Of a stretch of DNA of 63,259 nt, positions 5,494 to 60,437 are shown piece by piece (within the stretch, counting starts at the first letter, position 1; each line of letters opens with the position of its first letter). The position numbers and the translations under genes were made by a program. The notes under the pieces are model-generated. The model was given only the letters and a program-made list of their open reading frames with translations, did not search any database and had not been told where the DNA came from. Location of the stretch: positions 1 to 63,259 of the forward strand of contig CAWDOY010000040.1 in assembly GCA_963803975.1 (NCBI GenBank). Reading direction: 5' to 3'. This DNA comes from an uncultured delta proteobacterium. Its GTDB lineage: Bacteria; Desulfobacterota; WTBG01; CAIYCZ01.

Positions 5494-5503
5494 TGTAACA
5501 AGT

Positions 5504-5580
<77 letters not shown>

Positions 5581-6445: not shown

Positions 6446-6457
6446 GGAATCAACCCT

Positions 6458-6781
6458 ATGAAAGAATCGGAAATTTTACAGCACCTGGAAGAGATCGCGG
6501 AAAAGCTTGCTGTCAAGGTTCAGCAGGTGAACCTGCGGAAGGACTATTACAACTTAAAGAGCGGGCTGTGCAAAGTAAAGGGTGAACACCGGATTATTGT
6601 TGATAAACATCTCAACCTGTCTGAAAAGATAGATGTGCTCATCGACGCTCTTGGTGAATTTGATATTGAAGGTCTCTATATTAATCCCTATGTGCGCAGG
6701 CTGTTTGAAAAGCGCAGTGCTGCAGGCAGCGTTCCTCTCCTGATAGAGAGCGGCCCTGCAGATACCCACCCCTCCCCGTAA
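6458..6781 (+). CDS. Conserved hypothetical protein
   Basis: 107-aa ORF with RBS, directly after the TIM-barrel gene; conserved in both arms. Confidence 0.75.
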   Translation: MKESEILQHLEEIAEKLAVKVQQVNLRKDYYNLKSGLCKVKGEHRIIVDKHLNLSEKIDVLIDALGEFDIEGLYINPYVRRLFEKRSAAGSVPLLIESGPADTHPSP

Positions 6782-6887
6782 TTTTGACCTGCCCCGACCC
6801 TGTAACGCGCGTCATAGTGAATCGTAATCGTTCTCAGGTACTACACTATGCAGGCATCTACGAGTACATCCAGTCCGGAGGTTATGT

Positions 6888-8273: not shown

Positions 8274-8384
8274 AACAGCTGCTGCTTAAGGCTTCTGTTG
8301 TCCCTCGCGAGAATTCCCTGTTGACATGAACGAAGATTATGATGCACAATTAATCGGTGCACAGGGAACCGGCGTACCGGTGCT

Positions 8385-8717
8385 GTGGAATTTGCAACAG
8401 TGAAGAAACAAAACGCTATGTATTTCAGAAGAATAACGCATGTTATCACCGTCCTGTTTATTTTACTCTGCGCCTTGGTATGTCCTTTGCCGCAGGTGCT
8501 GTGTGAAGAGTGGCTCGACTACGACCTTGCGCACTGTATAAAGAAAAGACACTGTAAACATGAGTTCGGATTTTATTGCATCAGTTTTCTGCAGAAGATG
8601 TTTCACCAAATAATCTCCGGGACTGACTGCTTATTCAATTTCCCGCTCTTTACTCCGTTACGCACCATCCCGGCCCTGTGCTCTTCATCACAGTCTTCAA
8701 CGATTCTCCTGCTATAA
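8385..8717 (+). CDS. Small exported/membrane-anchored Cys/His-rich protein (leader-like; start may be 8418)
   Basis: N-terminal hydrophobic helix, HCxxxxHCKH, C-terminus SSTILLL; identical in both arms. Confidence 0.55.
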   Translation: MEFATVKKQNAMYFRRITHVITVLFILLCALVCPLPQVLCEEWLDYDLAHCIKKRHCKHEFGFYCISFLQKMFHQIISGTDCLFNFPLFTPLRTIPALCSSSQSSTILLL

Positions 8718-8857
8718 CATTTCCCCCGCAGCAGAGCATAGTTTTCAATAGGCAGCGCTGTACGCAGATCTATTTACTGCCTGGCATGTCCGATTTTTTA
8801 TTACAGCAGGACATTGCAGTGCAGCATTATGTGTGAACCTTTGTCGAGGAGGTCTCT

Positions 8858-9301
8858 ATGCTGGTTTCACGACTAACGCTTATGGTTATTGCAGCATGTA
8901 TCTGGTATGGGGGAGGGATAGCATTATTGTTTAAAGGCGGTTCACTGGTAAAGGGTGCTTATGCATTAGATTCCCAGTCTGTATGGATTTATGCGGCACC
9001 GGTGCTGGGAGTTGTCATTGGTTTTGTCAAAGCACGGTTCATCTTCAATCATGCCTGCAAGAAAAACATTGTCAGAATCAGGGCATTAGTAAATCCCCGC
9101 ATCTGGCAATGCTTCAGACCGGGAATGCTGATTTTTCTTGCTATCATTATCCCGACCGGGGCGTGGATGTCCCGGGCCGCAGCCGGTAATTTTACCTATT
9201 TGTGCTGTGTTGCCGCTCTTGATCTTTCTATCGCGACGGCCCTCCTGACCTCGAGCCTGCTCTTCTGGAAAATGAAAGCATTCTCAAGCGCTGACAGGTA
9301 A
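8858..9301 (+). CDS. Hypothetical 4-TM membrane protein
   Basis: GAGGAGG RBS, four hydrophobic segments; conserved in both arms. Confidence 0.8.
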   Translation: MLVSRLTLMVIAACIWYGGGIALLFKGGSLVKGAYALDSQSVWIYAAPVLGVVIGFVKARFIFNHACKKNIVRIRALVNPRIWQCFRPGMLIFLAIIIPTGAWMSRAAAGNFTYLCCVAALDLSIATALLTSSLLFWKMKAFSSADR

Positions 9302-9344
9302 TATTTTTTAGAGCTGTCCGGTACGAATAAACAGGATTTAATAC

Positions 9345-9557
9345 ATGACAAATCAAGAGCTAAACGAGTTGAAGAAGCTGGCGAAGTTTCTCTGGAACCA
9401 GGCCAACCTTCTGGAAAAGGCTGATACCAATCGACAGCAGATGGTTGACTTGGTTGATTATAGCAGTCGGAGAGCAAAGGCAGATGCCTACCGGCACACC
9501 AGTACCCTGCTGTCAATGAAACTGGAAATACTGCAGCGCAACGGGAACAAACAGTAA
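9345..9557 (+). CDS. Hypothetical 70-aa protein (left arm only)
   Basis: ORF with AGGA RBS inside the arm-specific segment 9290-9656. Confidence 0.5.
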   Translation: MTNQELNELKKLAKFLWNQANLLEKADTNRQQMVDLVDYSSRRAKADAYRHTSTLLSMKLEILQRNGNKQ

Positions 9558-9656
9558 GGGCTGCGCATAGCGAAGGAAAATACCGGCTGGGTCATGGTAA
9601 TTGAAAATCATTCCATGGCTGCACGGTACAGGCAGCGCCAATGCTTTTCTTCTGAA

Positions 9657-9686
9657 ATTTACACTTTCTTAACACTTTTTACAAAC
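9657..9686 (+). promoter_or_regulatory. Tandem ~11-bp-period direct repeats, OmpR/PhoB-family regulator-type site
   Basis: TTTACAC-tttc-TTAACAC-ttt-TTACAAAC; retained in the right arm (56514-56543). Confidence 0.45.
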
Positions 9687-9729
9687 TTCCCTCACATTTC
9701 CCATCCATACTGTAGACGTCCCCAAGATA

Positions 9730-9795
9730 GAACCACAGAGTTCACGGGGAATTTCCCTGAGAACCCCTCCCAAGGCCCTGTGCACTCTGTGGTTC
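9730..9795. repeat. Palindromic intergenic element
   Basis: GAACCACAGAG ... CTCTGTGGTTC inverted termini; related partial motifs at ~2741 and ~37865. Confidence 0.55.
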
Positions 9796-9858
9796 ACACT
9801 ATTCGAAAAAATTGCTGCTGGGCTTGCTGTGGCAGTTAATTAAAAAAAAGGTAACCTG

Positions 9859-10164
9859 ATGTCAAGGCAGAAGAAGTTGCTGCAGATCTGTTTCCTCTTT
9901 GCATTCATCTATATGATGATGTGCCCGGTGGTTCATGCACTGCATGATCAATATATCGGGGATGCGGTGTTTAATTTTCCTCTGCACTCAATAGTCCAGA
10001 AATATACCGGGGAGTTAAAGTCACATCAGGAAGACCTGATATATACATTTCTGCCTGATTATGCTGTTGGTAAATCCGTTTTATCACAAAACCTGTCCAT
10101 CCTTTTTTTCGCTAACCCTTCAAACAATCTCTCCATCGTCACCACCACCAGACTTAACCTGTGA
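9859..10164 (+). CDS. Small exported protein (leader-like)
   Basis: Signal-like N-terminus (..MMCPVVHA), C-terminus SIVTTTRLNL; conserved in both arms. Confidence 0.6.
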   Translation: MSRQKKLLQICFLFAFIYMMMCPVVHALHDQYIGDAVFNFPLHSIVQKYTGELKSHQEDLIYTFLPDYAVGKSVLSQNLSILFFANPSNNLSIVTTTRLNL

Positions 10165-10338
10165 TGCTGTAAGGACTGAAGCGCTGGTTTCACAGAGCGA
10201 ACGAAGGCCCTTGTGTGCCGCTCCCATGATAACCGCGCATTCAGCCCAGGTTTCAATGCCATAACGGGTTGCACTTCTGTTTCATGCGGGTGTCAATAAA
10301 TATTAATATTTTGAAAAGCAAAAAGCTTTTCTGTAAGA

Positions 10339-11031
10339 ATGGAGGTACCAGTCATGCAGTATTCAATAAAACGTTTAAGTAAAACAATCACCGTGCTGGC
10401 ACTTGGCCTTTTTCTTCTTCTGCCGCTGCCTTCTTTTGCCGCGGACACCGCGACCGGGCAAACCCTGATTATCTATTATTCGCGCACCGGTAAAAGCAGG
10501 CTCATAAGCCAGGTCCTGCAGAAGGAACTTAACGCGCAGGTTCTTGAAATAAAAGACCTGGAGGACCGGTCCGGGACATTAGGGTATGCCGGTGCGGGAT
10601 TTGATGGTTTTTTTGATCGGCACACCACGATTGACCCGACGAAGGCCGACCTCTCCCCGTATTCCAATATCGTCATTGTATCACCCATCTGGAACTGGAA
10701 ACTGAGCACCCCCATCCACACCTTTATTGACAACAACCGGCTTGATGGAAAGACGGTGGTGCTGTTTACCAACGGTAACAATGACGTACGCAAATATGAA
10801 CAGTATGACGATAACGCCCCGTGGATTAAAAGATTTTTCCGCGATTACATACGCGGCAAAAGCAAGGGGAGCAGGGACTATGTTACCAGCACAGCCGGGG
10901 GAAATTATGTCCGGCATTGTAATGTTGACACCCTTGAGGCCTCAGATGACCAAATCATCCAGCGCACGCTCAAACAGGTCGGTGATGTGAAAAGCGCCTT
11001 CTCAATCAAAACGGCAACAGCAAGCCAGTAG
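10339..11031 (+). CDS. Exported flavodoxin-like protein
   Basis: Sec signal (..PSFA-A), IYYSRTGKS FMN loop, SPIWNWKLSTP. Confidence 0.82.
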   Translation: MEVPVMQYSIKRLSKTITVLALGLFLLLPLPSFAADTATGQTLIIYYSRTGKSRLISQVLQKELNAQVLEIKDLEDRSGTLGYAGAGFDGFFDRHTTIDPTKADLSPYSNIVIVSPIWNWKLSTPIHTFIDNNRLDGKTVVLFTNGNNDVRKYEQYDDNAPWIKRFFRDYIRGKSKGSRDYVTSTAGGNYVRHCNVDTLEASDDQIIQRTLKQVGDVKSAFSIKTATASQ

Positions 11032-11092
11032 CGCTATCAGTTTTCATGGGCAACGGTAAAGCGGGAATCATTCAGATAAACGGTTGGCCCTG

Positions 11093-11123
11093 GTGAAGCC
11101 CCGCCCGGCGGGCGGGGCTTCAC
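11093..11123. repeat. 31-bp GC-rich palindrome
   Basis: GTGAAGCCCCGCCCG-G-CGGGCGGGGCTTCAC; copy at 55077-55107. Confidence 0.8.
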
Positions 11124-11202
11124 AGATGTTTTTAAGCACGGGTTCTGCGCCGCAGCCGCACCAGGACAATGCAGGATAACACGCGAAGAAAGGAAAGGAT
11201 AG

Positions 11203-11643
11203 ATGATGGAGTCCAACAATGACACGCACATTATAAAAAGCTTCAAGCGTATCTGCAAGCAGCAGATTGCCATTGACTGTAATAATATGGATCCGGACCT
11301 CAGGATGTCTCAGATAAAAATGCTGTCAGCTTTTAACGGCAGCAGCAGCCTTTCGCTGCAGGAGCTTGCGGACAACAGCGGCGTTACGGTTCCCCGCATG
11401 GCCGCCATGGTAAAGAGACTGATAAAAGACGGCATCATTGCACGGTGCAAAGATGATAAAGACCGCAGGAGATCGGCGGTCAGCCTGACTCCGCAGGGGG
11501 AAAAGCTCCGCAATCAGATTGCCGCAAACCGCCGCAAAGCAGCAAAGGCTCTCTATGCTCACCTGAACAATAAAGACCGGGTGATACTCCTCAATTCACT
11601 CGATACCGCGTGCAAAATCCTTGAAAAAATAACGCGGCGCTGA
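11203..11643 (+). CDS. MarR-family transcriptional regulator
   Basis: LSLQELA..VKRL.KDG.I.R..D.KDRR..VSLTPQG winged helix. Confidence 0.92.
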   Translation: MMESNNDTHIIKSFKRICKQQIAIDCNNMDPDLRMSQIKMLSAFNGSSSLSLQELADNSGVTVPRMAAMVKRLIKDGIIARCKDDKDRRRSAVSLTPQGEKLRNQIAANRRKAAKALYAHLNNKDRVILLNSLDTACKILEKITRR

Positions 11644-11869
11644 AAGCAGCCTGACAGTGCGCGGAAGCCGGACAGTATGCCTGCGCACGGTATGGCGCTG
11701 AGACACGGGAGAGAATAGAGGGAATTGCTGGTGATTACCGTTTGCAATTCCCCGTATAACCGGCGCATGAGACACACGCTGCTGCCAGCAGGCACCGGCA
11801 GATGGAACCCAGCGCTATTCATGGCTCCATTACACGAATTAGAAATCACATACCATAAGGAGGATTATC

Positions 11870-12644
11870 ATGCTACGAGCTCTGACCATTGCTCTCTCCG
11901 GCATCGTCTATTTCATCCTTTCTCTTCTGATTTTTTTGCCATTCCGCATGAAGCCGATCGAAAATTATAACCTCTTTGCCCTTCCCTTTCTGGCTGCGGT
12001 TTTTATGGTTTTATTATATAAGGCCTGTACTGAAATAAAAGAAAGCAAGAGTTATCTCTTTGCCTATTTCGCCGGTATTCTCATGTGGCAGGTTGTGGGT
12101 GAAATTCCTTCCATACGGGTACCTTCCGGCATTATTCTGCAGTTCAGTGATATCAATATAAAATTGCTCGGCGGATACTTTTATGTGCTGGCGTCCTGGG
12201 TTCTGCTGTACCTTCTGTGGGTAACGAAATCAATAAAAGAACAGGCAGCATTTGCTTTTATGATTTTTCTGGGGATCTGGACCTTTGAAATCTATATGGA
12301 TAACTACTCATCGAAAGTGCCGCTGGATATGATGCCGGCAATCGCTAATATAATCATGGTTGCAGCGCTGATCGTCAGCAGCTTCATTCTCTACCTTGCC
12401 GAGAAATGCGGCCACCATCGTGCGTAAAACAGTTCTGGGAGGGCTTTTATATATAACCCTTTCCATTATAATCATGGCGTCAGGCCAGTGGAAAAAACCC
12501 CAGAGTTTTTATTTAAAATATGAGGGGGCTGCCATAGAGCATGAGATAAAAGTGCTGAAAGGGGAGTTGGAGTATATTAATTATTTAAAAAAACAGATGG
12601 GTATGGTAGAAGAAGGGACATCACCTGATGCACCCGATAAATAA
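11870..12644 (+). CDS. Hypothetical polytopic membrane protein; +1 frameshift near 12400 (intact in the right arm)
   Basis: ORFs 11870..12427 and 12396..12644 together equal the 257-aa ORF at 53556..54329. Confidence 0.8.
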
Positions 12645-12672
12645 TAAAAGCTGGGAGAGGAGTTAAACGTTT

Positions 12673-14490
12673 ATGGACAGAGTTGACGTAGCACGAAAAG
12701 ACTATGACCCGAAGGTATCACGCATTCCTGAGCTGATCGGCACACATCCCGGAACCATTGCGCCGCTGGTAATCTGGAAGCCCAATCCCATGCAGCTGGT
12801 CAAGCCGGCAAGCGGGTCACGCGTGAGCGGAAAAATAGAGGTGGAGCTGAAAATACGGGAGGGGAATGAAGAGCTGGAAAAAAACCTGAAAAAAATCGTC
12901 CTCACCATCGACGGCCAGCGTTTTGAGTTTGACAAGCCGCAGTGCCGGATTGAGTTTGATACCTCGCGCGCGCAGTACCGCCTGATAAAAATCAAGGCAG
13001 AGGCAATCGGCAGCAGTGAAGAGGAGAGCGAGGCGGTCCTTGCGTCCTATTACACGTACGTGATTGCTGAAAACGGTGTCTTTGATAAAACCAAACCCCT
13101 GCTTCTTTTCAGCGGTGTTATCGAGCCGAAGATAGATAATACACGGGGGACATGGACCCCGGAGATGTACGATGCTGCATTCAGGTTTTCAGAGAATATC
13201 ATGAGCCATTTAATGCACTATGGGTTCGTGCCTGATTTTCTGAAGGAGGTCGACATGTTTACCGCGCTTATTGACCCCACCCAGCTTGATAAAGGGCTGG
13301 AAGAATACACGCCGGCGAAGCTCGTGAATATCCTCGGGCAAGAGTCCGGCCCGGGCTGCGATGGACAAACCTACACGGACATGATCGGTGCAACGCAGTG
13401 GATGGAAAAGACCAAGACCAAGCTCGGCACGATACTGCGGGGGTACCATATCCCGGAGGCCGGCCTGTCGAACGACATAGCTGATATTTTTGAAGTGTTT
13501 ACCGCCCACGTTATCAGCAATTATTATAAATTTGCCCCGGTCGGCGGCATGCGGGGATGGGACCAGACACAGATGCTGTTTAACGACGTTATCGAGGACC
13601 TCCGGAAAAACGGCTTCAAGGGGCCATGGGATGTATACTCTCTTATCATCGGAAAGAAGCCGGTCTATCTCGTCGAGAAGATCAAACGGCACATCAAAGA
13701 AAATAATATCAGCGGTGTCGTGCTCTATGACTATATTCCCGATCTTTCGGATTTTGAAGACACCAAGGGCATGTGGGAAGAGGTGCAGCACGCTATCGAT
13801 ATTGTGGAGAAGGAGACCGGTAAGAGGCTGCCGCTGTCCATCGTCAACACCACGGAGGGCGAGCTCCTGGGTGTGCAGCCTGACTTTGCCGAGGCTGCCT
13901 TCAGAATTACCCGCAATGAGATCGCGACCTGCGGCATCGCTGACGATTTAAAAGTGGGGTTCATCCTGGGCGAGCACGGGTTTCCTCCCGGAAACGGCGA
14001 AGATGATGTTATTGATGTGAACATGAGAAGAGTGCGGCAGAATATCCGCAGGGTTTTCGACCGTGAGCTGCCGAAGCTGAGAAAAGGGGTTACTGAATAC
14101 GCCCTCGGGATGAATGAATTTAACAACCACCCTGATTCACCGCAGATGTCCTCCATGGAACGGATGGTCGATTACCTGCACCGGGGCTTTGACGTGATCA
14201 TCTTCCAGCCGTACTATTTCACCAATGAAACCATTGATCTTTTTGAACATCTGCGGCACTGGGCCTTTGAGCTTGACGGCCTTGATTATCACCATGAATT
14301 CCACGGCGGCCATGAGATAGCGCAGAACTACCGGAGCGATTTTAATTTCCGGGGCGCGCGCATTATTATTACCGGATCGCTCATGGGGCGGTATGAGAAG
14401 AACGGTAACGAGCCCCTGGTGAAGGAAGCGTACATGCTTTTCAAGGGCAGCATTGTTGATACCATAGCACGGAAAATAGCTGCGCTGTAA
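12673..14490 (+). CDS. 605-aa protein: N-terminal Ig-like domain plus ferrochelatase (class II chelatase)-like domain
   Basis: Ig-like KPASGSRVSGKIEV..LTIDG..FDTS; ILGEHGFP resembles HemH FSAHGLP; IFQPYYFTNETIDL resembles VPIGFVSDHIETL; His-rich HHEFHGGH. The ORF is certain; the function is inferred. Confidence 0.6.
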   Translation: MDRVDVARKDYDPKVSRIPELIGTHPGTIAPLVIWKPNPMQLVKPASGSRVSGKIEVELKIREGNEELEKNLKKIVLTIDGQRFEFDKPQCRIEFDTSRAQYRLIKIKAEAIGSSEEESEAVLASYYTYVIAENGVFDKTKPLLLFSGVIEPKIDNTRGTWTPEMYDAAFRFSENIMSHLMHYGFVPDFLKEVDMFTALIDPTQLDKGLEEYTPAKLVNILGQESGPGCDGQTYTDMIGATQWMEKTKTKLGTILRGYHIPEAGLSNDIADIFEVFTAHVISNYYKFAPVGGMRGWDQTQMLFNDVIEDLRKNGFKGPWDVYSLIIGKKPVYLVEKIKRHIKENNISGVVLYDYIPDLSDFEDTKGMWEEVQHAIDIVEKETGKRLPLSIVNTTEGELLGVQPDFAEAAFRITRNEIATCGIADDLKVGFILGEHGFPPGNGEDDVIDVNMRRVRQNIRRVFDRELPKLRKGVTEYALGMNEFNNHPDSPQMSSMERMVDYLHRGFDVIIFQPYYFTNETIDLFEHLRHWAFELDGLDYHHEFHGGHEIAQNYRSDFNFRGARIIITGSLMGRYEKNGNEPLVKEAYMLFKGSIVDTIARKIAAL

Positions 14491-14688
14491 AGCGCAATGG
14501 CCGACTTGCGATAGCGCTGGCCCGGCTTTTCATACCATCTGCGGCGCACAGGAGTTTCCTCCTCTTATTCCCTGTCTCCTTCCTATGAGCTGCGGATGTT
14601 TTTATTTCTGGCAACTAAGTGAAGGTCATATTGAGATGGTCAGGGAACTGCTGCAGCGCTGCGACGATATAAAGGAGCTATTGGTTCC

Positions 14689-15015
14689 ATGTTCATTGAG
14701 GTAACAACCGGAAATGCTGAAGATAAAAAAAACTATATGCGCAAGCTGCTCCGCACTTTCATTGAAACAAAAATGAAAACATATAGTGAGCTTGAGGCAC
14801 AGAGCGCGGACCATGCTGCTGCAAAAACAAAATACCTGGCAAGCCTGTGGATGGTTTTTTCTGTTACCGGGATCATGCAGCAGGAAGAGATATCACAGCT
14901 ATCAGGCATTGCACGCGGCCTTCTTCAGGGCTGGGAAAGCGATAAAGAATTTAACGCATCAGTGGAGTGCAACTATAAGGATTTCTTAATCTACATCGTA
15001 AATCTGTTTGCCTGA
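14689..15015 (+). CDS. Hypothetical protein
   Basis: AAGGAG RBS; 108 aa, conserved in both arms. Confidence 0.65.
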   Translation: MFIEVTTGNAEDKKNYMRKLLRTFIETKMKTYSELEAQSADHAAAKTKYLASLWMVFSVTGIMQQEEISQLSGIARGLLQGWESDKEFNASVECNYKDFLIYIVNLFA

Positions 15016-15078
15016 AATGTAAAAATTTAGATTTGAACTGGGGAAATAAGATTTTGATCGTATCAGACAATTGCATCT

Positions 15079-15253
15079 GACTTGGCGACGCTTCACGCCC
15101 ATAGTAGATGCCTATATCCCGCGCCTCCGGATATGCCATAAGTTCCCGGAGGTACGATTTTTCGCCACAACTCAAGGCAAGAGCCGTATGCGGTAGTTCC
15201 GCACGTACGGATCTGTACGGGGGGTGCTGGGTAACCGGTATTCCTACCGTGAC
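15079..15253 (+). mobile_element. 5'-truncated group II intron remnant (end of RT/maturase ORF, domain V, domain VI)
   Basis: TWRRFTPIVDAYIPRLRICHKFPEVRFFATTQGKSRMR*; DV GAGCCGTATGCGGTAGTTCCGCACGTACGGATC at 15181; DVI ending CTACCGTGAC. Confidence 0.9.
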
Positions 15254-20030: not shown

Positions 20031-21275
20031 ATGAAAAACAATTGCATTGAAATTTCCTGTAATGACCGTAAAAAGTCGCTGCCTGATGTGGCCTGTAATT
20101 CAGTAGAGAACAATTTTTTTGTTGTCTGGGCCGCCGTCCCGGGCGAAGACAAGCCAGACTGCAGATAACTTTATTTATGGACAGAAAATTTCAAGCCTGG
20201 GAGAGGCGCTGGGCGAGCCTGTTGAGGTGGTGAAAACCGAAGATGTGCTGATGCTGCCGCGCGTGCTGTACAACCCGAACAAAAATCAGTACCTGGTGAT
20301 CTACTGTCTGGGGGAAAGCTATTTCAATATTCGGGGCGTCATTCTGGATGCGGACGGCAGGGCTGTCGGGGGGCACTTCAAGGTAACCGATGTGCCTGCA
20401 AACCAGTTTCATTTCACCATGGCATTCAATTTCAGAAGAAATCAGTTTTTCATAACCTACAACGACTTCAGGGACGACGTCAGTAGTGTTTACGGGGTTA
20501 TCATAGATGACACCGGCGCGGCAGTGAAAGAAGAATTTCTCATCAGCAATGCGGCAGGGCATCAGGTGAACCCCGTGGCCTGCTACAACCCGCAGGATGA
20601 TACCTATCTTGTCAACTGGGAGGATTTCAGGGCTCACGGCGACAGCCTCCCTGCACTTGAAACGCTCGAAGTCACATGACCGATATCTACGGCGCGCTGC
20701 TTGCCGCAGACGGCACTGTTCTGGTCAATAATATCCCCATGTGCGCTGATGCCAACGGCATTGATGGCGATCAGCGCTTTAACGGTATCGCCTACAACTC
20801 AAAAACCAATCAGTTTCTGGCCAGCTGGACCGATAGCCGCGACAGCCTGCAAAACGTCGGCATTATGGGCAGAATCGTGAAAGCCGACGGCACCATGCCG
20901 GCGGGAGATTTTACCCTGGTTGATGCGCCCGGCGCACAGATGATAAGCCATACCCTGTATCTGCCGCAGGAGGATAAATACTTTATCGTCTTTGAGCGCG
21001 ACCGCAATGATGTGGATAAGTTTTATTTTAAGGACATTACCGCGCATCTGGATATAGCGGCCATGTGGCTTGATGCCAATGGTCAGCCCGAGGCCGGCAT
21101 GATCGATATTTTTAACGGTGACGGGAATCAGCGCTTTGTGCGCGTTGCCCATGACGCCAAAAGCAACACTTTTTTAATGGTCTGGCAGAGTGATTTTCCG
21201 GGCGTGTCCGATTCAGTAGAGGGACATATCATGAGCGCCGGCGGCAATATTTTGGGTAAAATATACAAAAAGTAA
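20031..21275 (+). CDS. Hypothetical repeat protein, probable beta-propeller; frameshifts near 20130 and 20676
   Basis: Recurring P.VAYN....YLV.W....I.G blades across three frames; GGAGA RBS before ATG 20031. Confidence 0.65.
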
Positions 21276-25978: not shown

Positions 25979-26512
25979 AGACAGGTACTCCTTTGGAAAT
26001 GAATAATTATCAACGGAGCAATAATGTCTTTATAAATAAAAATGAGTATATGAGGATAAAAATGGAGTGTCAATTTTTATAAGAGCATTGCAGATCGAAT
26101 CCGGGAACCGGGGAACACAGGCCCGAGCTGGTGCAGATTTTTTTTCAATAAAGAACACGGTCGGGATAATTGATACCATTGCCGCAGGTAATTCCCTGTA
26201 GTCTGCAGGACTGGAGAGGTAGATATAAAAGCTGCTTAAAAGACTTAAGAAAATAAGAATAGCGCGGTGCCTTGCACATGGCTCCAGGTTGTGGTAAACT
26301 TCAAACCATATAAAGTCATGGCGGATAAGACGCTCAGTTTTACGGAATAGTGACACAGCGTTACACAAGCACAAGCAAAATATATACAATTTGAGAACTT
26401 TTCACGTGATTTTTAATATCTCTGTTCTGAAAAACACTCCTCTTTACGAGGGGCACTCACCGTATTTTAAATAATCGCTCTTCGCTGAAAAATATTGCCC
26501 TAATTCAGATAT

Positions 26513-26625
26513 ATCAGCTGGCGTCATCAGAGGCAGTGTGCAACAAGTGCCATACACTTGAGCGAAGCTATTGCAATGGCCCGTCATCATGCCATGACTG
26601 CCACAATGACGGTGACTATGGCTTC
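26513..26625 (+). pseudogene. Orphan copy of the 3' end of the multiheme cytochrome gene (direct repeat of ~31680-31788)
   Basis: Reads QLASSEAVCNKCHTLERSYCNGPSSCHDCHNDGD; no start codon. Confidence 0.85.
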
Positions 26626-26734
26626 TTCATTCTGTACAGTTGCCAAACATGGCAGTAGCGTAAAAAATTTCAGGGTATCGCTGACCGCTTGTCTGGGTCT
26701 GTAATGTATTCATCAAAGTAAGGGGTATAGTCTC

Positions 26735-27409
26735 TTGAAAATTCTGGTTGTAGAAGATGATAAAAGGATAGCCTCTTTTCTTTTGAAAGGGTTAAAGCAG
26801 GCAGGATTTGTCGTAGATCATGCGGACAATGGCGAGGACGGACTTGCCTTTGCACAGACTGGAATCTATGCCGCAGCAGTTATAGATATCATGCTGCCCA
26901 GGATGGACGGTTTGAGTCTTATTGAAGAGCTGAGGCGGGGAAAAGTAAATCTTCCGGTGATCATTCTGAGTGCCAAGCGTTCAGTAGATGACAGAGTTAA
27001 GGGACTTCAAAGCGGTAGTGACGATTATTTAACCAAGCCATTTGCCTTTTCTGAACTTCTGGCACGTTTACAAGCGATTATCCGCAGGTCAAGTGCTGCT
27101 ATTGAGCCGGCCCGTCTGATCGTGGGAGATATCTCTATGGACCTGCTAACCCGGGAAGTTATCCGGGAAGAAAAAGGGATCGACTTGCCGCTTCGTGAAT
27201 TTGCTCTCCTCGAATATTTAATGCGCAATGCAGGGAAGATCCTATCCAAGACTATGATTATAGAGAATGTCTGGGGCTATGACTATGACCCGCTAACGAA
27301 TGCTGTTGATGTGCTGGTGTGCAGATTGCGTAATAAGCTGGACAAAGATTTTGATAAAAAGGTGATTCACACCATCCGGGGAGTTGGGTATGTCCTTAAA
27401 GTTTCTTAA
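26735..27409 (+). CDS. OmpR-family response regulator (CusR/CopR-like)
   Basis: ILVVEDD, DIMLP, DDYLTKPFAFSEL, HTIRGVGY. Confidence 0.95.
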   Translation: MKILVVEDDKRIASFLLKGLKQAGFVVDHADNGEDGLAFAQTGIYAAAVIDIMLPRMDGLSLIEELRRGKVNLPVIILSAKRSVDDRVKGLQSGSDDYLTKPFAFSELLARLQAIIRRSSAAIEPARLIVGDISMDLLTREVIREEKGIDLPLREFALLEYLMRNAGKILSKTMIIENVWGYDYDPLTNAVDVLVCRLRNKLDKDFDKKVIHTIRGVGYVLKVS

Positions 27410-28808
27410 CCTTACCCGAAAAACTATCGGTTTCCGGTTGACCTTGTGGTATTCGATTGTGTTTATTCTGAGTTCTCTGCTTTTCTTTGCTCTTGCATAT
27501 TTTTTTCTTTCTGTATCTATCCAGCAAAAGGACAGGGAAGTTATTCAGTCTGAGCTCGAAGAGTATATAGCCCAGTATAATGAAGGGGGGGCCAGTGCCC
27601 TGCAACAAGGAGTTGACCTGCAGAAAGATCTCAGCGGTAAAAACCCTTTTTTAGTTCGGCTTGCCGGACCTGAAAACGAGACCGTTTTCTTGAATATCCC
27701 GGATAAATGGGCGGCGTTTGACCTTCGAAAGCTTGAAAAAAAAGATTACCGGAACAAAGGGCATTGGCTCTATCTGAAAACTAAAAACAACCAGGATATA
27801 TTAGAAGTAGCGCTGCAACGCCTCTCTGATGGTTCTGTGCTTCAGGTGGGCAAGAGCGTGGCAAACCGAACGGAACTTCTCGGCCGATTTAACAAAATCT
27901 TTGCCGGGGCTATACTGCTGGTAGTTTTTATAGGCTTAACCGGGGGTATTCTTTTTGCGGTCAAAACACTTCGACCGATTCGTCACTTACTGAGTACTAT
28001 CAACTCGATAATACATACAAGTAATATAAGTGCCCGGGTGCCTACCAGACATACCGGTGATGAACTTGATGAGATGAGTATTGCGTTTAACACAATGCTG
28101 GAAAGGATTGAAACGTTAATAACTGAACTGAAAATGGGGCTGGATAATGTTGCACACGATTTGCGCACCCCGATGATGCGATTGCGCGGTACTGCGGAAC
28201 TGGCGTTACAATCGGAACAGACTGAAGAAGTCCTCCGCGAAGCTTTAAGTGATTGTATAGAAGAGGCGGATAGAATTACTGCAATGTTAAATACTCTGAT
28301 GGACATTACCGAGGCAGAAACCGGGGTGATGAAACTGAATCTGGAGGAGGTTAATATTGTAACTCTGATCGAGGAGGCAGTCGATCTGTACGGTTATGAT
28401 GCTGAGGAAAAGCGCATTAAAATTCATACAACGCTGCCGGAAGAACTTTATTTGAACGCAGACTGTATCAGGTTGCGGCAGGTTCTTTCCAATTTGCTCG
28501 ATAATGCCGTTAAGTATACTCAGAGCGGTGGAACGATAGGTATTGAAGCTTTCAAAAAAAAACAACAAGCCACGGTAATTGTCAGGGATACCGGGATTGG
28601 AATTCCCGCTGAAGAAGTTTCCAAAATCTGGGACCGCCTGTATCGCGGTGACAAAAGCCGCTCACAGCGAGGGCTTGGCCTCGGGTTGAGTCTGGTTAAA
28701 GCTATTGTTCAGGCACACCAGGGATACATTGAGGTTAGCAGTAAGCCGGGTTCCGGCTCTTTATTCTCCATACACCTTCCCCTACTAACCGCTCCGCATC
28801 CTTCCTGA
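27390..28808 (+). CDS. Sensor histidine kinase (CusS-like; 2 TM, HAMP, HisKA, HATPase)
   Basis: RLTLWY, GDELDE, AHDLRTP, NLLDNAVKY, DTGIGI, GLGLGL. Confidence 0.95.
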   Translation: MSLKFLNLTRKTIGFRLTLWYSIVFILSSLLFFALAYFFLSVSIQQKDREVIQSELEEYIAQYNEGGASALQQGVDLQKDLSGKNPFLVRLAGPENETVFLNIPDKWAAFDLRKLEKKDYRNKGHWLYLKTKNNQDILEVALQRLSDGSVLQVGKSVANRTELLGRFNKIFAGAILLVVFIGLTGGILFAVKTLRPIRHLLSTINSIIHTSNISARVPTRHTGDELDEMSIAFNTMLERIETLITELKMGLDNVAHDLRTPMMRLRGTAELALQSEQTEEVLREALSDCIEEADRITAMLNTLMDITEAETGVMKLNLEEVNIVTLIEEAVDLYGYDAEEKRIKIHTTLPEELYLNADCIRLRQVLSNLLDNAVKYTQSGGTIGIEAFKKKQQATVIVRDTGIGIPAEEVSKIWDRLYRGDKSRSQRGLGLGLSLVKAIVQAHQGYIEVSSKPGSGSLFSIHLPLLTAPHPS

Positions 28809-28813
28809 TAACA

Positions 28814-28905
28814 CTTTCATCATTGTAATGTTTTAGAAAGAATCTTGTAAGCTCCGTGCTGTATTGTAGGATTATAGGATAAAGCAAGTTCCTGTCAATG
28901 AGCCA
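28814..28905 (+). promoter_or_regulatory. Putative response-regulator-controlled promoter, copy 1
   Basis: TTTCATCATTGTAAT plus 11-bp-period TGTAAT/GAAAG/TGTAAG boxes; ungapped homolog at 36571-36662. Confidence 0.55.
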
Positions 28906-29253
28906 TTATTGGTCATGACGATATAGTCTCTCAATAATTTTCCCGAAGGGTGCATGATGAAATATGCTCTAAATAAGAAGGGCGGGATTTTTTCTATTGC
29001 TGCCCTTGCACATTCAAAAAAAATGTATTACATACACATAAACTGCGTATACATAAATTTTTCCATACCTGTAAATCATTTTTGTCATTACATTCGCTTA
29101 CTCGATTATCCCCGTTGTTAAAAATTATTTAAAAACAGATGTAACAATTTTTGTCCTACCGTTAACAATAATGCATACCTTTATCGTGGAGAATGGCAGG
29201 TTGAAAAAATATAAACAAAGCTAAAACAACATATTAAGCATAATTCAACCACG

Positions 29254-29269
29254 TGGCACACTTTTTGTT
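29254..29269 (+). promoter_or_regulatory. Possible sigma54 promoter upstream of the cytochrome
   Basis: TGGCAC-N5-TTGT; -24 matches, -12 has GT instead of GC. Confidence 0.3.
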
Positions 29270-29347
29270 AGTTGATGAAACAATTTTTCAAAGTAAGAAA
29301 ACCATATAATTATAAAACACTAACTGATTAATAATTCATTTTATAAG

Positions 29348-31782
29348 TTGAGGAACATGCCTATGGATAATAAAGAAAGCTTAAACAGTTCAATGCGCAG
29401 ACGCTATGTAGTGGCGCTGAGCGCCCTGGTGATGGCAACCGCTCTTTTGTCAGGTGCCTGCAAACCCTGGACACATGATGCAGAATGGACTAACCCCCAG
29501 TTAAAAGGCACCAAAGACTTTCATGGAACGGTAGTAATCAACCGGGGCAGTTCTACGCTGTGCAAAGCATGCCATGGCTCTGATCTGAAGGGATTAGGGG
29601 AGATACCGGGTTGCTATAAGTGCCATTTTGGGCCCGAGGGCAGCCGTTCTCCGTCAGGTTCATCATGGAATCATGGAATGGCTCAGCATGAAAATCTGCG
29701 CGCTGAAGAACCGATGTGCAATACCTGCCACGAGCTGTACCGGAGTAACGGGTTAGCGCCAAATACATGCCATGACTGTCACAGTATTTCCCCGGAGACT
29801 CATCCCCTGGGTCAGTCCTGGCTGGATAAAAAAAGCCCTGATTTTCATGGTAAAAGCACCCTTGATTGCAGCACGTGCCATGATCTGAAAACCAAATGTT
29901 CAACCTGTCATTTCGGGGCAACAGGAAGTCAATCGCCATCCGGTTCAGGATGGAGCCATGGCACCACCCCGCATAATCAACTGGCATCATCCGAGGCAGT
30001 ATGCAGTAAATGCCATACGCTTGATAGAAGCTATGGCAATGGCCCGGCCACTTGTCATGACTGTCATGGTACGCCTCCCAGTCACGTTCTGGGAGAGCCG
30101 TGGTTAAATCAGAAAAGTCCCCAGTTTCACGGCAAGAGCACGCTTAACTGCGCCTCGTGTCATGATCTGAAAACCAAATGTTCAAACTGCCATTTCGGGG
30201 CAACAGGAAGCCAGTCGCCATCCGGGTCGGGATGGAGCCATGGCACCACCCCGCATAATCAACTGGAATCATCGGGGGCTGTTTGCAATATCTGCCACGA
30301 GCTTGATCGGGGCTATGGTAATGGTCCTGCAACATGCCATGACTGTCACGTTAAGCCACCCCATGTGCTGGGGCAGCCGTGGCTGGATCAGAAAAGCTCT
30401 CAGTTCCACGGTAGAAGCACCCTTGACTGCAGCTCGTGTCATGATCCGAACACTGAATGCGCATCCTGTCATTTCGGGGCATCGGGCAGTAAATCACCAT
30501 CCTCGGGATGGCTTCATGGGACAACGCCGCACAATCAGCTGGCATCATCTGAGGCAGTTTGTAATAAATGCCATAAACTTGATCGAAGCTACGGCAATGG
30601 CCCGGCAACATGCCATGATTGTCATAGCGGTGTTGGCGGAGGCGGAAGTGGTGGCGGACATGTTCTGGGAAAGCCGTGGCTGGATCCCAAGAGCGCGCAG
30701 TTTCACGGCAACAGCACACTCAACTGCAGCTCGTGTCATGATCTGAACACCAAATGCGCAACCTGTCATTTCGGGGCAACGGGAAGGAAGGCTCCAGTCG
30801 GGTCTACCTGGAGCCATGGCACCACGCCGCATAATCAGCTGGCATCATCTGAGGCAGTTTGCAGTAAATGCCATACACTTGAGCGAAGCTATGGCAATGG
30901 CCCTGCAACATGCCATGACTGCCACGCTCAGCAGACCCATGTTTTAGGAAAGCCGTGGCTGGACCCAAAGAGTTCGCAGTTTCACGGCAACAGTTCACTC
31001 AACTGCAGCTCGTGTCATGATCTGAACACCAAATGCGCAACCTGTCATTTCGGGGCGATCGGGAAGTAAAGCACCATCCGGTTCAGGCTGGAGCCATGGG
31101 ACCACGCCGCACAATCAGCTGGCATCATCCGAGGCAGTGTGCAACCAATGTCATACACTTGAGCGAAGCTATGGCAATGGCCCTGCAACATGCCATGACT
31201 GCCACGCCCAGCAGACCCATGTTTTAGGAAAGCCGTGGCTGGATCCCAAAAAGTTCGCAGTTTCACGGCAACAGCACACTCAACTGCAGCTCGTGTCATA
31301 ATCTGAGCTACCGAAATGCTCAAGCTGTCATTTCGGGGCATCGGGAAATAAAGCACCATCCGGTTCAGGCTGGAGCCATGGCACCACGCCGCATAATCAG
31401 ATGGCATCATCCGAGGCAGTGTGCAACCAATGTCACACACTTGAGCGAAGCTATGGCAATGGCCCTGCAACATGCCATGACTGCCACGCTCAGCAGACCC
31501 ATGTTTTAGGAAAGCCGTGGCTGGATCCCAAGAGCTCCCAGTTTCACGGCGACAGTTCACTCAACTGCAGCTCATGTCACAACACCGAGCACAGAATGCT
31601 CAACCTGTCATTTCGGGCCAACGGGAAGGAAGGCTCCGGTAGGGTCAAGCTGGAGCCACGGCTCATCATCGCATAAGAGCATGGAATCATACCAGGCAGT
31701 ATGCAATAAATGTCATACGCTTGAACGAAGCTATGGCCATGGCCCGTCATCATGCCATGACTGCCACGGTGACGGTGATTAG
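29348..31782 (+). CDS. Lipoprotein multiheme cytochrome c of 8 tandem tetraheme modules (~32 CxxCH); frameshifts after ~31060
   Basis: Lipobox LSGA-C; 22 CxxCH in the 573-aa ORF and 10 more in shifted frames up to ..CHDCHGDGD* (TAG 31780-31782). Confidence 0.9.
29801..31770 (+). repeat. Intragenic tandem repeat, ~280-bp period
   Basis: Module starts (H-P/V-L-G) at about 29801, 30083, 30362, 30659, 30938, 31218 and 31500. Confidence 0.92.
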
Positions 31783-32028
31783 GGCTTCGCAGGGTACTAT
31801 TTCCCGAACAGCGTGAAAAAAAGGGATCCCTTCCCAAACTAATCTAAGTAGTATGGGAAGGGTCCCTTACTATCAACAGAGCTGACCCCAATTAAGCAGC
31901 ATTTCCCCTTTCCCCCTTTTTTTGCTAATTCTGCTTGCATCAACACCGTTTGCCCTCTATACTTTTTAAAATCTTTTATTACAGCACCTGCGCACTATTA
32001 TCAGTGATTCCCTGAACAGGAGAAACCT

Positions 32029-34012
32029 ATGGAAAAAAAGGCCGTGGAACAGCAAGATATTTTTGGCTGGAGAGGAAAAATACTGCGGGTTGATCTCTCG
32101 CAGGCAAAAATATGGGATGAAGAGCTTTCCCGCGCATACATGGACGGTTATATCGGCGGGCGCAGGAATAAATGCCCGTCTGCTCTATGATCTCATGCGC
32201 AACAATCCCCAGGCAGATGCCCTGTCACCGGAGAACCCGCTCATTTTCGGCTGCGGGCCGCTGGTTGGCACCACTTTCCCGTGCGCAAGCCGCTTTACCG
32301 TAACCGGCAAAAGCCCGCTTACCGGGATCTTTGGTGACACCAATGCCGGCGGGTGGTTCCCGGTACGGCTCAAGCAGGCAGGCTATGACCACATCGTCAT
32401 CCAGGGAAAAGCCGCGCGTCCGGCAGCGCTTCTTATTGAACCGGGCGCCGCGCCGCAGCTTGTCGATGCAGCTGATATATGGGGTCTTGATATCTTTGAT
32501 ACCGATAAAAAGCTCCATGAAAAATACGGCGACTGTGAAACTGCCCGGATCGGGCCGGCCGGGGAAAACCTGGTGCGGTTTGCAAGTATTTTATCAGGCA
32601 CCAAACGGACCAGCTCCAATGGCCGCACCGGCATGGGCTGCGTCATGGGCTCAAAGAACCTGAAGGCCATTATTATAAAAGTTAAGAAGGGCGTCGGCAT
32701 GGTGCCGGTTGCCGATGAACAGGCGGTAGAAAAGATTGCAAAACATTATCGGGACGTCTGGCTCAAAGGCCCGGGAACCTCGCTTAAACGGCAGTACGGC
32801 ACACTGACGAATTTTTCACAGATTGCCGAGCACACCCGCATCAAAAACGAGCAGGAGCCTTTGACCACCGAGCAGATTGATGCCTATGATCTGGACCTTT
32901 TTGTGAACAATTTTAAAACCGGACAAACCGCCTGCTATCGCTGCCCGGTGGCCTGCTCCCAGAAATGGGAAATAAAAGAAGGTCCCTATCAGGGGGAGAA
33001 GGGTGACAAGGTTGAATACGGGCACCTGCTCAATCTGGGGCCGAATCTCGGGATTTTTGATTTCGCGACCATGCTGCACCTTGCGGATTTGAGCAACCGG
33101 CTGGGCATGGACTGTATCCAGTTCGGCTATAATATGGCCATTGCCATGGAGTGCTTCCAGCGCGGCATTTTAAGCAGCGAGGCAACCGGCGGCATTGAAC
33201 TGAACTGGGGCAACAGCCAGACCGTGGAAACACTGATGCGAAAAACCGCCTTTCGCGAGGGCTTCGGCAACCTGCTGGCGGAAAATGCCCCGACCATGGC
33301 CTCCCGCATCGGGCCGGATGCCGAGCAGTACGGCTCGCATACCAAGGGCATGTCCTTTCCCTTCAGCTGCACCTATGCGCTGCCCATGAGCCTGGCCTCG
33401 TCAGTGGCGACACGGGGAGGCGACCACCTGAAGGGCCATCCGTTTGCAGCCATAATCGGGCACCAGGAAATGCTGGAAAAAATGTTCGGCAAAGATATTC
33501 CCCCTGAAGCAAGCGATCACACCAGCCCAATTGCCAAGGGAAGGGTTGTCTGGTGGCAGGAAAACTACAAGATGATCATGGACTGCCTCGGGCTGTGCTT
33601 TCTTCCCATCATTAACTCCAACGTGTGGAGCGACCCCCTGATTATGATAAAGGAGATGGCCGAGATGTATCAGACCATAACCGGCCGGGACGCCTCCGGG
33701 CTGTTTACTGCGGCTGAGCGGGCCTACCAGATTGAGCGCTGCTTCAACACGCTGCAGGGCATCACACGGAAAGACGACACGAGAAAGGGAACCCTGCGGG
33801 GAGAGAAAAATCCCATCGATCTTCCGGGCATGCTCGATGAATATTATCTCTACCGAGGCTGCTCTTCGGACGGGCTGCCGACGCGCAAGCGGCTGCAGGA
33901 AATAGGGCTTGCCGATGTGGCCGAAGAAATGGCCGGAACTAAAAAACTCTCGGAAGAGGAGCGACCGGCGATAGCCGAGCTGCTGCAGGATTCTACTGAT
34001 GTGAGGGGGTAG
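32029..34012 (+). CDS. aor: Aldehyde:ferredoxin oxidoreductase family (tungsten-type); frameshifts in the first ~130 nt
   Basis: GWRGKILRVDLS (shifted frame), KSPLTG, IGPAGENLV, GRTGMGCVMGSKNLKA, CYRCPVAC, RGGDHL. Confidence 0.92.
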
Positions 34013-51014: not shown

Positions 51015-51184
51015 TTTTTGTCCCTGCGGCAGCGGGTTAAAATATAAAAAATGTTGCGGGAGAAATTATCAACCTCAGACAGTGCAACAAAGTAGATGCT
51101 GACTTCTTAATGTAAGATGCAATTGTCTGATACGATCAAAATCTTATTTTAAAAACTGCCAGTTCAAATCCATATTTTTACATT

Positions 51185-51511
51185 TCAGGCAAACAGATTT
51201 ACGATGTAGATTAAAAAATCCTTATAGTTGCACTCCACTGATGCGTTAAATTCTTTATCGCTTTCCCAGCCCTGAAGAAGGCCGCGTGCAATGCCTGATA
51301 GCTGCGATATCTCTTCCTGCTGCATGATCCCGGTAACAGAAAAAACCATCCACAGGCTTGCCAGGTATTTTGTTTTTGCAGCAGCATGGTCCGCGTTCTG
51401 TGCCTCAAGCTCACTATATGTTTTCATTTTTGTTTCAATGAATGTGCGGAGCAGCTTGCGCATATAGTTCTTTTTATCTTCAGCATTTCCGGTTGTTACC
51501 TCAATGAACAT
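51185..51511 (-). CDS. Hypothetical protein (copy of 14689-15015)
   Basis: One aa difference. Confidence 0.65.
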   Translation of the reverse strand: MFIEVTTGNAEDKKNYMRKLLRTFIETKMKTYSELEAQNADHAAAKTKYLASLWMVFSVTGIMQQEEISQLSGIARGLLQGWESDKEFNASVECNYKDFLIYIVNLFA

Positions 51512-51709
51512 AGAACCAATAGCTCCTTTATATCGTCGCAGCGCTGCAGCAGTTCCCTGACCATCTCAATATGACCTTCACTTAGTTGCCAGAAATAAAA
51601 ACATCCGCAGCTCATAGGAAGGAGATAGGGAATAAGAGGAGGAAACTCCTATGCGCCGCAGATGGTATGAAAAGCCGGGCCAGCGCTATCGCAAGTCGGC
51701 CATTGCGCT

Positions 51710-53527
51710 TTACAGCGCAGCTATTTTCCGTGCTATGGTATCAACAATGCTGCCCTTGAAAAGCGTGTAGGCTTCCTTCACCAGGGGCTCGTTACCGTTC
51801 TTCTCATACCGCCCCATGAGCGATCCGGTAATAATAATGCGCGCGCCCCGGAAATTAAAATCGCTCCGGTAGTTCTGCGCTATCTCATGGCCGCCGTGGA
51901 ATTCATGGTGATAATCAAGACCGTCAACCTCAAAGGCCCAGTGCCGCAGGTGCTCAAAGAGATCAATGGTTTCATTGGTGAAATAGTACGGCTGGAAGAT
52001 GATAACATCAAAGCCCCGGTGCAGGTAGTCCACCATCCGCTCCATGGAGGACATCTGCGGTGAATCAGGGTGGTTGTTGAATTCATTCATACTGAGGGCG
52101 TACTCAGTAACCCCTTTGCGCAGCTTCGGCAGTTCCTTATCATACACCCTGCGAATGTTTTGCCGCACTCTTCTCATGTTCACATCAATAACATCATCTT
52201 CGCCGTTTCCGGGAGGGAACCCGTGCTCGCCCAGGATGAATCCCACTTTTAAATCGTCGGCGATGCCGCAGGTCTCGATCTCGTTGCGGGCAATTCTGAA
52301 GGCAGCCTCGGCAAAGTCAGGCTGCACGCCCAGGAGTTCTCCCTCCGTGGTGTGGACGATGGACAGCGGCAGCCTCTTGCCGGTCTCCTTCTCCACGATA
52401 TCAATCGCGTGCTGCACCTCTTCCCACATGCCCTTGGTGTCTTCAAAGTCTGAAAGATCCGATATATAGTCATAGAGCACAATGCCGGTAATATTATTCT
52501 CTTTCATGTGCCGCTTGATCTTGTCGACCAGGTAGTCCGGCTTCTTTCCGATGATAAGAGAGTATACATCCCATGGCCCCTTGAAGCCCTTGTTCCGGAG
52601 GTCCTCGATAACGTCGCTGAACAGTATCTGGGTCTGGTCCCATCCCCGCATGCCGCCGACCGGGGCGAATTTATAATAATTGCTGATAACGTGGGCGGTA
52701 AACACTTCAAAGATATCAGCTATGTCGTTCGACAGGCCTGCCTCCGGGATATGGTACCCCCGCAGTATCGTGCCGAGCTTGGTCTTGGTCTTTTCCATCC
52801 ACTGCGTTGAACCGATCATGTCCGTGTAGGTTTGTCCATCGCATCCGGGTCCGGTCTCGTTACCCAGCATATTCACCAGCTTCTGCGGCGTGTATTCTTC
52901 CAGCCCTTTATCAAGCTGAGTGGGGTCAATAAGCGCGGTAAACATATCGACCTCCTTCAGAAAATCCGGCACGAACCCGTAGTGCATCAAATGACTCATG
53001 ATATTTTCTGAAAACCTGAAGGCAGCATCGTACATCTCCGGCGTCCAGTCCCCGCGCGTGTTATCAATCTTCGGCTCGATAACGCCGCTGAAAAGAAGCA
53101 GGGGGTTTGTTTTATCAAACACACCGTTTTCAGCTATCACGAAGGTATAATAGGAAGCAAGTACCGCATCGCTTTCCTCTTCATTGCTGCCGATTGCCTC
53201 CGCCTTGATCCTCAGCAGCCGGTACTGCGCGCGCGAGGTATCAAACTCAATCCGGCACTGCGGCTTGTCAAACTCAAAACGCTGGCCGTCTATGGTGAGG
53301 ACGATTTTTTTCAGGTTTTTTTCCAGCTCTTCATTCCCCTCCCGTATTTTCAGCTCCACCTCTATTTTTCCGCTCACGCGTGATCCGCTTACCGGCTTGA
53401 CCAGCTGCATGGGATTGGGCTTCCAGATTACCAGCGGCGCAATGGTTCCGGGATGGGTGCCGATCAGCTCAGGAATGCGTGATACCTTCGGGTCATAGTC
53501 TTTTCGTGCTACGTCAACTCTGTCCAT
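51710..53527 (-). CDS. Ig-like + ferrochelatase-like protein (copy 2)
   Basis: About 31 aa differences from the left copy. Confidence 0.6.
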   Translation of the reverse strand: MDRVDVARKDYDPKVSRIPELIGTHPGTIAPLVIWKPNPMQLVKPVSGSRVSGKIEVELKIREGNEELEKNLKKIVLTIDGQRFEFDKPQCRIEFDTSRAQYRLLRIKAEAIGSNEEESDAVLASYYTFVIAENGVFDKTNPLLLFSGVIEPKIDNTRGDWTPEMYDAAFRFSENIMSHLMHYGFVPDFLKEVDMFTALIDPTQLDKGLEEYTPQKLVNMLGNETGPGCDGQTYTDMIGSTQWMEKTKTKLGTILRGYHIPEAGLSNDIADIFEVFTAHVISNYYKFAPVGGMRGWDQTQILFSDVIEDLRNKGFKGPWDVYSLIIGKKPDYLVDKIKRHMKENNITGIVLYDYISDLSDFEDTKGMWEEVQHAIDIVEKETGKRLPLSIVHTTEGELLGVQPDFAEAAFRIARNEIETCGIADDLKVGFILGEHGFPPGNGEDDVIDVNMRRVRQNIRRVYDKELPKLRKGVTEYALSMNEFNNHPDSPQMSSMERMVDYLHRGFDVIIFQPYYFTNETIDLFEHLRHWAFEVDGLDYHHEFHGGHEIAQNYRSDFNFRGARIIITGSLMGRYEKNGNEPLVKEAYTLFKGSIVDTIARKIAAL

Positions 53528-53555
53528 AAACATTTAACTCCTCTCCCAGCTTTTA

Positions 53556-54329: not shown

Positions 54330-54556
54330 GATAATCCTCCTTATGGTATGTGATTTCTAATTCGTGTAATGGAGCCATGAATAGCGCTGGGTTCCATCTG
54401 CCGGTGCCTGCTGGCAGCAGCGTGTGTCTCATGCGCCGGTTATACGGGGAATTGCAAACGGTAATCACCAGCAATTCCCTCTATTCTCTCCCGTGTCTCA
54501 GCGCCATACCGTGCGCAGGCATACCTGTCCGGCTTCCGCGCACTGTCAGGCTGCTT

Positions 54557-60360: not shown

Positions 60361-60437
<77 letters not shown>

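Follow-up and report, generated by a model that had tools for sequence, protein, structure and literature searches.

A predicted lipid-anchored cytochrome of eight tetraheme modules and its near-identical alleles of differing module number

The window analyzed here covers positions 1 to 63,259 of contig CAWDOY010000040.1 (C40) of assembly GCA_963803975.1, a genome labelled G000 in the following. It carries a cytochrome gene encoding a signal peptide with a Cys, eight tetraheme modules and, counted over all frames, 32 CxxCH motifs (Table 1). A preliminary description had placed the gene at 29348..31782; this agrees with its true end, TAG 31780-31782, and reading of the sequence sets the likely start at ATG 29363, with GAGGA located 8 nt upstream. 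The lipobox LSGA-C reported there follows a hydrophobic signal and offers a Cys at 29459, although it is slightly non-canonical owing to the Ser at -3.

Table 1. Genes, repeat units and other features of the cytochrome locus (positions within the window).
Feature	Position	Strand	Evidence
Islet of 5.8 kb: relic, regulator, kinase, cytochrome	26086..31917		Replaced by 80 bp in the same-genus genome G001
Relic, 3' end of the same cytochrome gene (last two hemes and cap), no start	26509..26625	+	Sequence; also in C41, L123 and short-read contigs
OmpR-type response regulator, best family CztR/SilR/CopR (below cut-off)	26735..27409	+	Profile scores
HAMP sensor histidine kinase, best family CztS/SilS/CopS (below cut-off)	27384..28808	+	Profile scores
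Signal peptide ending in lipobox-like LSGA-C	29363..29461	+	Sequence; Cys 29459-29461, Lys at +2
Module M1, divergent; hemes 1 and 2 separated by a 12-residue spacer	29474..29782	+	Pfam PF14537 at residues 70-146
Module M2	29801..30067	+	Sequence
Module M3	30083..30349	+	Sequence
Module M4	30362..30625	+	Sequence
Gly-rich linker, 11 residues	30626..30658	+	Sequence; also in alleles P0002, P0208, P0213, P0222, P0227
Module M5	30659..30925	+	Sequence
Module M6, extra base 31057 leading to stop 31067-31069	30938..31205	+	Sequence
Module M7, extra bases 31248, 31309, 31313	31218..31487	+	Sequence
Module M8, short acidic cap (GDGD) and stop, extra base ~31583-31587	31500..31782	+	Sequence; short-read contigs

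Tandem Repeats Finder reports an array with a period of 282 nt and 6.9 copies (29819-31768), to which M1 adds a divergent eighth unit. The earlier count of one divergent and seven further modules thus stands; near-identity is confined to M5-M7 (90-95% DNA identity), the remaining module pairs sharing 72-85%, and substitutions between modules fall mostly at third codon positions. Most inter-module linkers comprise just 4-6 residues, and the Gly-rich linker noticed previously does sit in mid-chain. The array is not due to chance: its open frame contains 22 CxxCH, whereas 2000 shuffles averaged 0.3 and never exceeded 4. Read through, the mature protein would measure ~772 aa or ~24 aa per heme, close to the ~23 aa given before and likewise leaving no room for a catalytic domain. 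The GDGD cap also ends the intact six-module proteins P0004, P0215 and P0216.

Each module of ~93 aa binds four hemes according to its motifs and follows the pattern H-x5-W-x7-FHG-x5-CxxCH-x5-CxxCH-FG-x11-W-x-HG-x3-H-x9-CxxCH-x12-CHDCH. Instead of the four invariant extra His proposed initially, we count five conserved non-motif His, as the H inside CHDCH is conserved as well. Among 421 distinct modules from 157 proteins, parsed without any requirement for spare His, five are kept in 406, four in 14 and three in a single N-truncated one, so that 420 of the 421 offer enough spare His for one distal ligand per heme. The CHDCH His is lost most often (9 cases) and still kept in about 98% of modules, and Met is absent in M2-M5. 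All four hemes per module are therefore likely bis-His ligated and low-spin, as had been predicted, with His1, His16, His53 and His58 as probable distal ligands and the CHDCH His in a structural or spare role. Since the first and last modules retain their His about as well as the internal ones, ligation presumably takes place within each module.

An AlphaFold2 model of M1-M4 (70 sequences, no hemes) reached a mean pLDDT of 82.6 with dips at the linkers and a pTM of 0.38. It depicts the modules as ordered beads joined by low-confidence linkers, their relative placement not being fixed by the model. In 12 of 156 full-module proteins a single module occurs with no other heme, and several of these are small and secreted, which suggests that the module folds alone. 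It aligns over two diheme units of the pure diheme-repeat protein P0295 (probability 96%) and hence likely arose by diheme duplication; its two halves resemble diverged versions of one diheme unit that ExtG-type proteins share. Searches with M2-M4 against PDB sequences gave zero matches at E 10, and comparison of fold (heme-free models) and sequence with solved structures likewise returned zero matches for the module.

The earlier statement that the module is not of c3, c7, OmcS/E/Z or MtrA type is borne out by sequence. Nanowire subunits (OmcS/OmcE/OmcZ) are absent among the profile matches, which are weak matches of CxxCH spacing. The module lacks both the CxxCHH motif of cytochrome c3 (class III) and the FxHxxH ligand pair that precedes heme 1 in that class, although PF14537 passes its cut-off on M1. 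Some likeness exists to the small tetraheme cytochrome STC/CctA: four hemes are carried on ~90 aa, heme 1 is preceded by an FH motif, and two His are placed between the second and third hemes. Here, the family profile scored E 1e-4 over the whole chain of STC and a single-module profile only E 4, and lipid anchor and tandem array are features of neither STC nor cytochrome c3. The tandem cytochrome c7 dodecaheme GSU1996 and the predicted long wires OmcA/OmcG/OmcH are likewise single chains of linker-joined heme modules, proposed as wires (PMC11492766). The c7/GSU1996 repeat is however triheme, in contrast to the unit of four hemes and five spare His in the window; the best c7 match to the module profile had an E of 1.3, and PF14522 found no match in the window ORF.

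The closest known kin of the module is ExtG (GSU2724) of the Geobacter sulfurreducens extEFG porin-cytochrome conduit, a link that had been overlooked before. This unit is described with a porin-pentaheme-cytochrome gene order and a contribution to metal-oxide reduction (PMC6148476). By eye, the window cytochrome shares with ExtG its secreted, multiheme character, a Cys following the signal and His-Trp-His-Gly-CxxCH-CxxCH diheme units. In 10 of 18 related loci, moreover, the module protein comes third, after genes for a porin-like protein (430 aa) and a pentaheme lipoprotein (157 aa), the latter matching by eye the OmaV/OmaW sequences printed in supplement file 5 of PMC11492766. Several alleles of the gene even end in an ExtG-type tail: the ten hemes at the end of C41, L123 and P0227 follow the C-terminal part of ExtG motif by motif (by eye), and the CxxxxCH/CxxCH profile TIGR01904 is matched by P0213, P0227 and C41. 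The window allele, unlike ExtG, consists of modules only and ends in GDGD without a TIGR01904 match; it does not hold the third position of a porin-pentaheme-cytochrome operon, and neither porin nor pentaheme is adjacent or found in the genome. Lacking both this tail and this operon position, it is not filed here as ExtG. ExtG for its part appears to lack the second half of the tetraheme module, judging from a survey whose reference set has no CHFG (PMC11492766), and differs further in that module number varies among near-identical alleles of the window gene. An enlarged cytochrome with 24 CxxCH in the ExtG position was reported (PMC13013709). In its mode of action, the window cytochrome would resemble ExtG or GSU1996.

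The tetraheme module is rare. A word-based search retrieved 82 relatives of 315-1003 aa plus seven longer ones, and a profile built from the five in-frame modules of the window, run against 1.84 billion representatives, retrieved 111 clusters with E 0.001 or better. Modules per protein range from 1 to 15, in line with the suggested change of length by repeat; P0083 carries 15 in 1832 aa with 66 CxxCH, and P0001 is an intact eight-module, 32-heme relative. A lipobox-like Cys precedes module 1 in 116 of 128 N-complete members (loose pattern). Strong matches were obtained in 5 of 40 genomes of relatives (one more marginal) and in 5 of 400 genomes sampled from the phylum (eight weaker). Taken together with the absence of the gene from the congeneric G001, this distribution marks it as dispensable. 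In L048 (5487-7064, minus strand), P0077 and P0299, a molybdopterin oxidoreductase (PF00174) protein carries one module fused at its C-terminal end; the Geobacter extEFG unit is described as including a YedY-family gene (PMC6148476). Further relatives (P0297, P0301, P0302 and L052 3290-4159, minus strand) are secreted single-module proteins with His-, Glu- and Arg-rich tails.

The neighbours of the cytochrome gene are the kinase and an aldehyde:ferredoxin oxidoreductase gene (32030-34012), the latter intact with 660 aa in L123 and G001. The regulator and kinase part of the islet has a GC content of 40-47% versus about 54% in the flanks. The adjacent pair may regulate the cytochrome gene, and its best-scoring families invite the alternative of a surface metal-binding or metal-reducing detoxification protein under a heavy-metal-type two-component system, in which the fifth His would form a metal site and variation would stem from surface selection rather than electron reach. 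The pair travels with the cytochrome gene on one islet, the fifth His is retained in nearly all modules, and some single-module relatives bear His- and acid-rich tails. The scores, however, stay under the metal-sensor cut-offs, G001 carries the orthologous pair beside unrelated, non-heme genes, and the family context elsewhere is that of a porin-cytochrome conduit; we hold this explanation to be very improbable. A related regulator-kinase pair adjoins a nine-heme cytochrome gene in L101 (9412-14061) of genome G003. On the minus strand, a perfect sigma-70 consensus promoter (28898-28871) points antisense into the kinase gene, and a strong hairpin, recognized by eye, follows the cap-type stop at 31823-31866, where the tail-type allele L123 has other sequence.

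The preliminary description spoke of a single chain with 32 hemes and missed that the frame is broken: although 32 CxxCH are present in all, the assembled ORF stops at TAA 31067-31069 after 573 aa (counted from TTG) and 22 CxxCH, the remaining ten lying in two shifted frames up to the final TAG. Alignment to M5 traces this to five single extra bases (Table 1), and in the same alignment M6-M8 show zero nonsense changes and retain every Cys and His. The gene is very probably intact, the extra bases being likely consensus errors. As a control, 300 ORFs were taken from stretches of the relatives G001 and G003; among the 187 conserved genes scorable in G000, 47 were frameshifted, which amounts to 0.28 shifts per kb (60 over 216 kb). 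The window sequence GCG-A-TCG at 31057 combines the GCG-AGC and GCA-TCG variants of other copies, as expected if reads of mixed repeats or strains were merged. Base 31587 is missing from short-read contigs of runs X4 and X7, and an X1 contig spans 31601 through the M8 stop to 32044; such bridging contigs covered this one of the five extra bases, so that the other four, like the eight-module count, rest on the assembly rather than on the sample's raw reads. The neighbouring oxidoreductase gene contains an extra base at 32160 which is missing in the syntenic contig L123, and the cytochrome gene of C41 likewise gains gaps from M4 onward.

Alternatively, the strain could make a truly truncated, 22-heme protein of 5.5 modules, the 3' modules being a recent pseudogenic remainder of an orphaned ExtG. 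Break density does exceed the genome background (four break sites in 2.4 kb, Poisson p 0.005) and the different allele P0222 stops at the same point in M6, which a real shared truncation would fit too; the partner porin was not found, and a relic gene end lies upstream. Against this, breaks fall where repeat variants differ, one of them is absent in two runs, the ligands of M6-M8 are all in place, and other long assemblies of the gene (P0002, P0005, P0225) break elsewhere, whereas the short-read alleles P0208, P0213 and P0215 are intact. Decay or true truncation of this allele appears quite unlikely. An intact gene would also mean that genes of this kind are under-called in long-read bins, since its database entry shows 22 hemes instead of 32.

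A further caveat, compatible with the other readings, concerns the count itself: haplotypes with different 3' halves may have been merged, in which case M6-M8 would overstate the array of any single strain. This is suggested by the two copies of the locus (C40 and C41) within one genome bin, by break sites that look like unions of two variants and by joints in short-read contigs that skip 1, 2 or 4 modules. Yet a divergence of 5-10%, including many synonymous changes, separates M5, M6 and M7 from one another, and an intact eight-module relative as well as proteins of 9-15 modules exist. We regard a count inflated by assembly as unlikely. A ~12 kb inverted repeat of 97% identity (2673-15081 and 51112-63259), both arms of which match the end of contig C39, likely represents two strain haplotypes joined in one contig.

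Near-identical alleles of the gene carry 3, 5, 6 or 8 modules, corresponding to 12 to about 33 hemes. C41, from the same genome bin, has the locus in a second copy (93.5% identity), in which six modules precede the ExtG-type tail. L123, with the same gene order and a downstream flank of 97-99% identity, carries an intact 827-aa allele of five modules plus tail. Over signal, M1 and half of M2, the alleles P0217 (three modules plus cap), P0208 and P0213 (five plus tail) and P0227 (six plus tail) share 94-97% identity; P0215 (73%) has six modules and the cap. The switch between cap and tail and the counts of 5, 6 and 8 rest on independent contigs; flanks were checked for L123 and, upstream only, for C41, L122 and L124. 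In P0217, M1 is succeeded by a middle module in which the first half of M2 (100%) is joined to the second half of M5 (98%), and this by the cap module, which would be the mark of a crossover, but collapse in short-read assembly could give the same, and short alleles from such assemblies could in general be collapsed repeats. Unequal crossing-over inside modules would add or remove four hemes per event and exchange the tail for the cap. A 779-aa gene in L123 (1452-3788), located between the bilin reductase-like and flavodoxin genes, is absent from the window, and C41 shows an alignment gap there (9813 to 6963), so that the region varies in gene content between strains.

Giant multiheme cytochromes, with hemes numbering from 24 to more than 100, have been described along with their modular growth, for the most part by comparing species. 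What stands out here is that alleles of a single locus, otherwise near-identical, vary in their number of whole tetraheme units and in their terminal domain. Published examples include a modular cytochrome of 86 hemes (PMC12133095), predicted single-chain wires (PMC11492766) and modular gain and loss (bioRxiv 2025.05.29.656830; PMC9250108). Our literature search found no description of the tetraheme module or of heme-number variation at strain level; among 8 CHFGP/CHFGA passages of the survey, a single module-bearing protein from Geopsychrobacter is marked No ID (PMC11492766). It is a tentative and rather doubtful extension of these data that one locus, in strains of a single species, provides a wire of 12 to about 33 hemes in steps of four, switched by recombination between capped and ExtG-tailed forms made of a tetraheme bead that folds by itself, with an undescribed fold, and working without the ancestral porin: a natural heme ruler. 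Such a ruler, if real, would be a ready series relating chain length to the reach, rate and capacity of multiheme electron transfer, and the bead a stackable part for designed wires. Given the near-identical series and the one-module proteins, constructs of 1, 2, 4 and 8 modules would be directly comparable.

For the window cytochrome itself, we favor, at somewhat better than even odds (roughly 55%), a lipid-anchored string of eight bis-His tetraheme beads which relays electrons in the cell envelope and descends from the ExtG conduit component, now served by another donor. Its length likely changes from strain to strain through recombination between modules. The intact 32-heme protein, with its self-contained beads, would relay or buffer electrons; its ancestor may have been the third component of an ExtEFG-type conduit, of which this lineage kept the cytochrome without the porin. 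Neither an ExtE-type porin nor an OmaV-type pentaheme was found in G000, and the porin profile returned nothing in G000, G001, G013, G014 and G020, while the positive control G101 matched. The known docking partner is thus missing, which counts against the relay, and electrons would have to come from another partner or from periplasmic carriers. One candidate is encoded on contig C20 (38147-40800; also L061), where a GSU2203-type decaheme adjoins a GSU2204/MtrB-like porin gene; the examined locus shows no large cytochrome further downstream. From the dimensions of tetraheme cytochromes we estimate that eight extended beads could span ~25-30 nm. As for the membrane-anchored wire of the preliminary description, continuity of hemes between modules stays putative, as the heme-free model joins confident modules by low-confidence linkers (pTM 0.38) and ligands appear intramodular.

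The same properties would suit a periplasmic heme capacitor, in which the beads serve a slow-growing anaerobe as an electron store that soluble carriers fill and empty, without directional conduction, copy number meaning capacity and not reach. Flexible linkers (including the 11-residue Gly linker), the low pTM, ligands predicted entirely inside modules and the lack of a detected ExtE-type porin are in keeping with such a store, and ExtG is predicted to be periplasmic (PMC6148476). Conversely, another report treats the ExtG position as an outer-membrane cytochrome (PMC13013709), most linkers are short enough for contact between modules, and a strict ancestral coupling to a porin is not needed for storage. 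A pure store of electrons seems unlikely, and the anchored relay remains our preferred reading.

Several observations concern the remainder of the window and genome. A ferredoxin-dependent bilin reductase-like gene (PF05996; 24624-25352, minus strand) lies in an anaerobic, apparently non-phototrophic genome, and two abutting ORFs of 186 and 199 aa (20119-21275) look like one frameshift-split gene. In G000, dsrA was not found. Cytochrome c assembly is represented there by two genes, and 32 open stretches each contain at least four CxxCH. Ten such open stretches, with 4-16 CxxCH each, cluster on contig C19 (13900-37400), and contig C53 (15018-18032, minus strand) encodes a secreted protein of ~970 aa with 28 CxxCH, whose non-heme N-terminal domain appears cohesin-like by eye.
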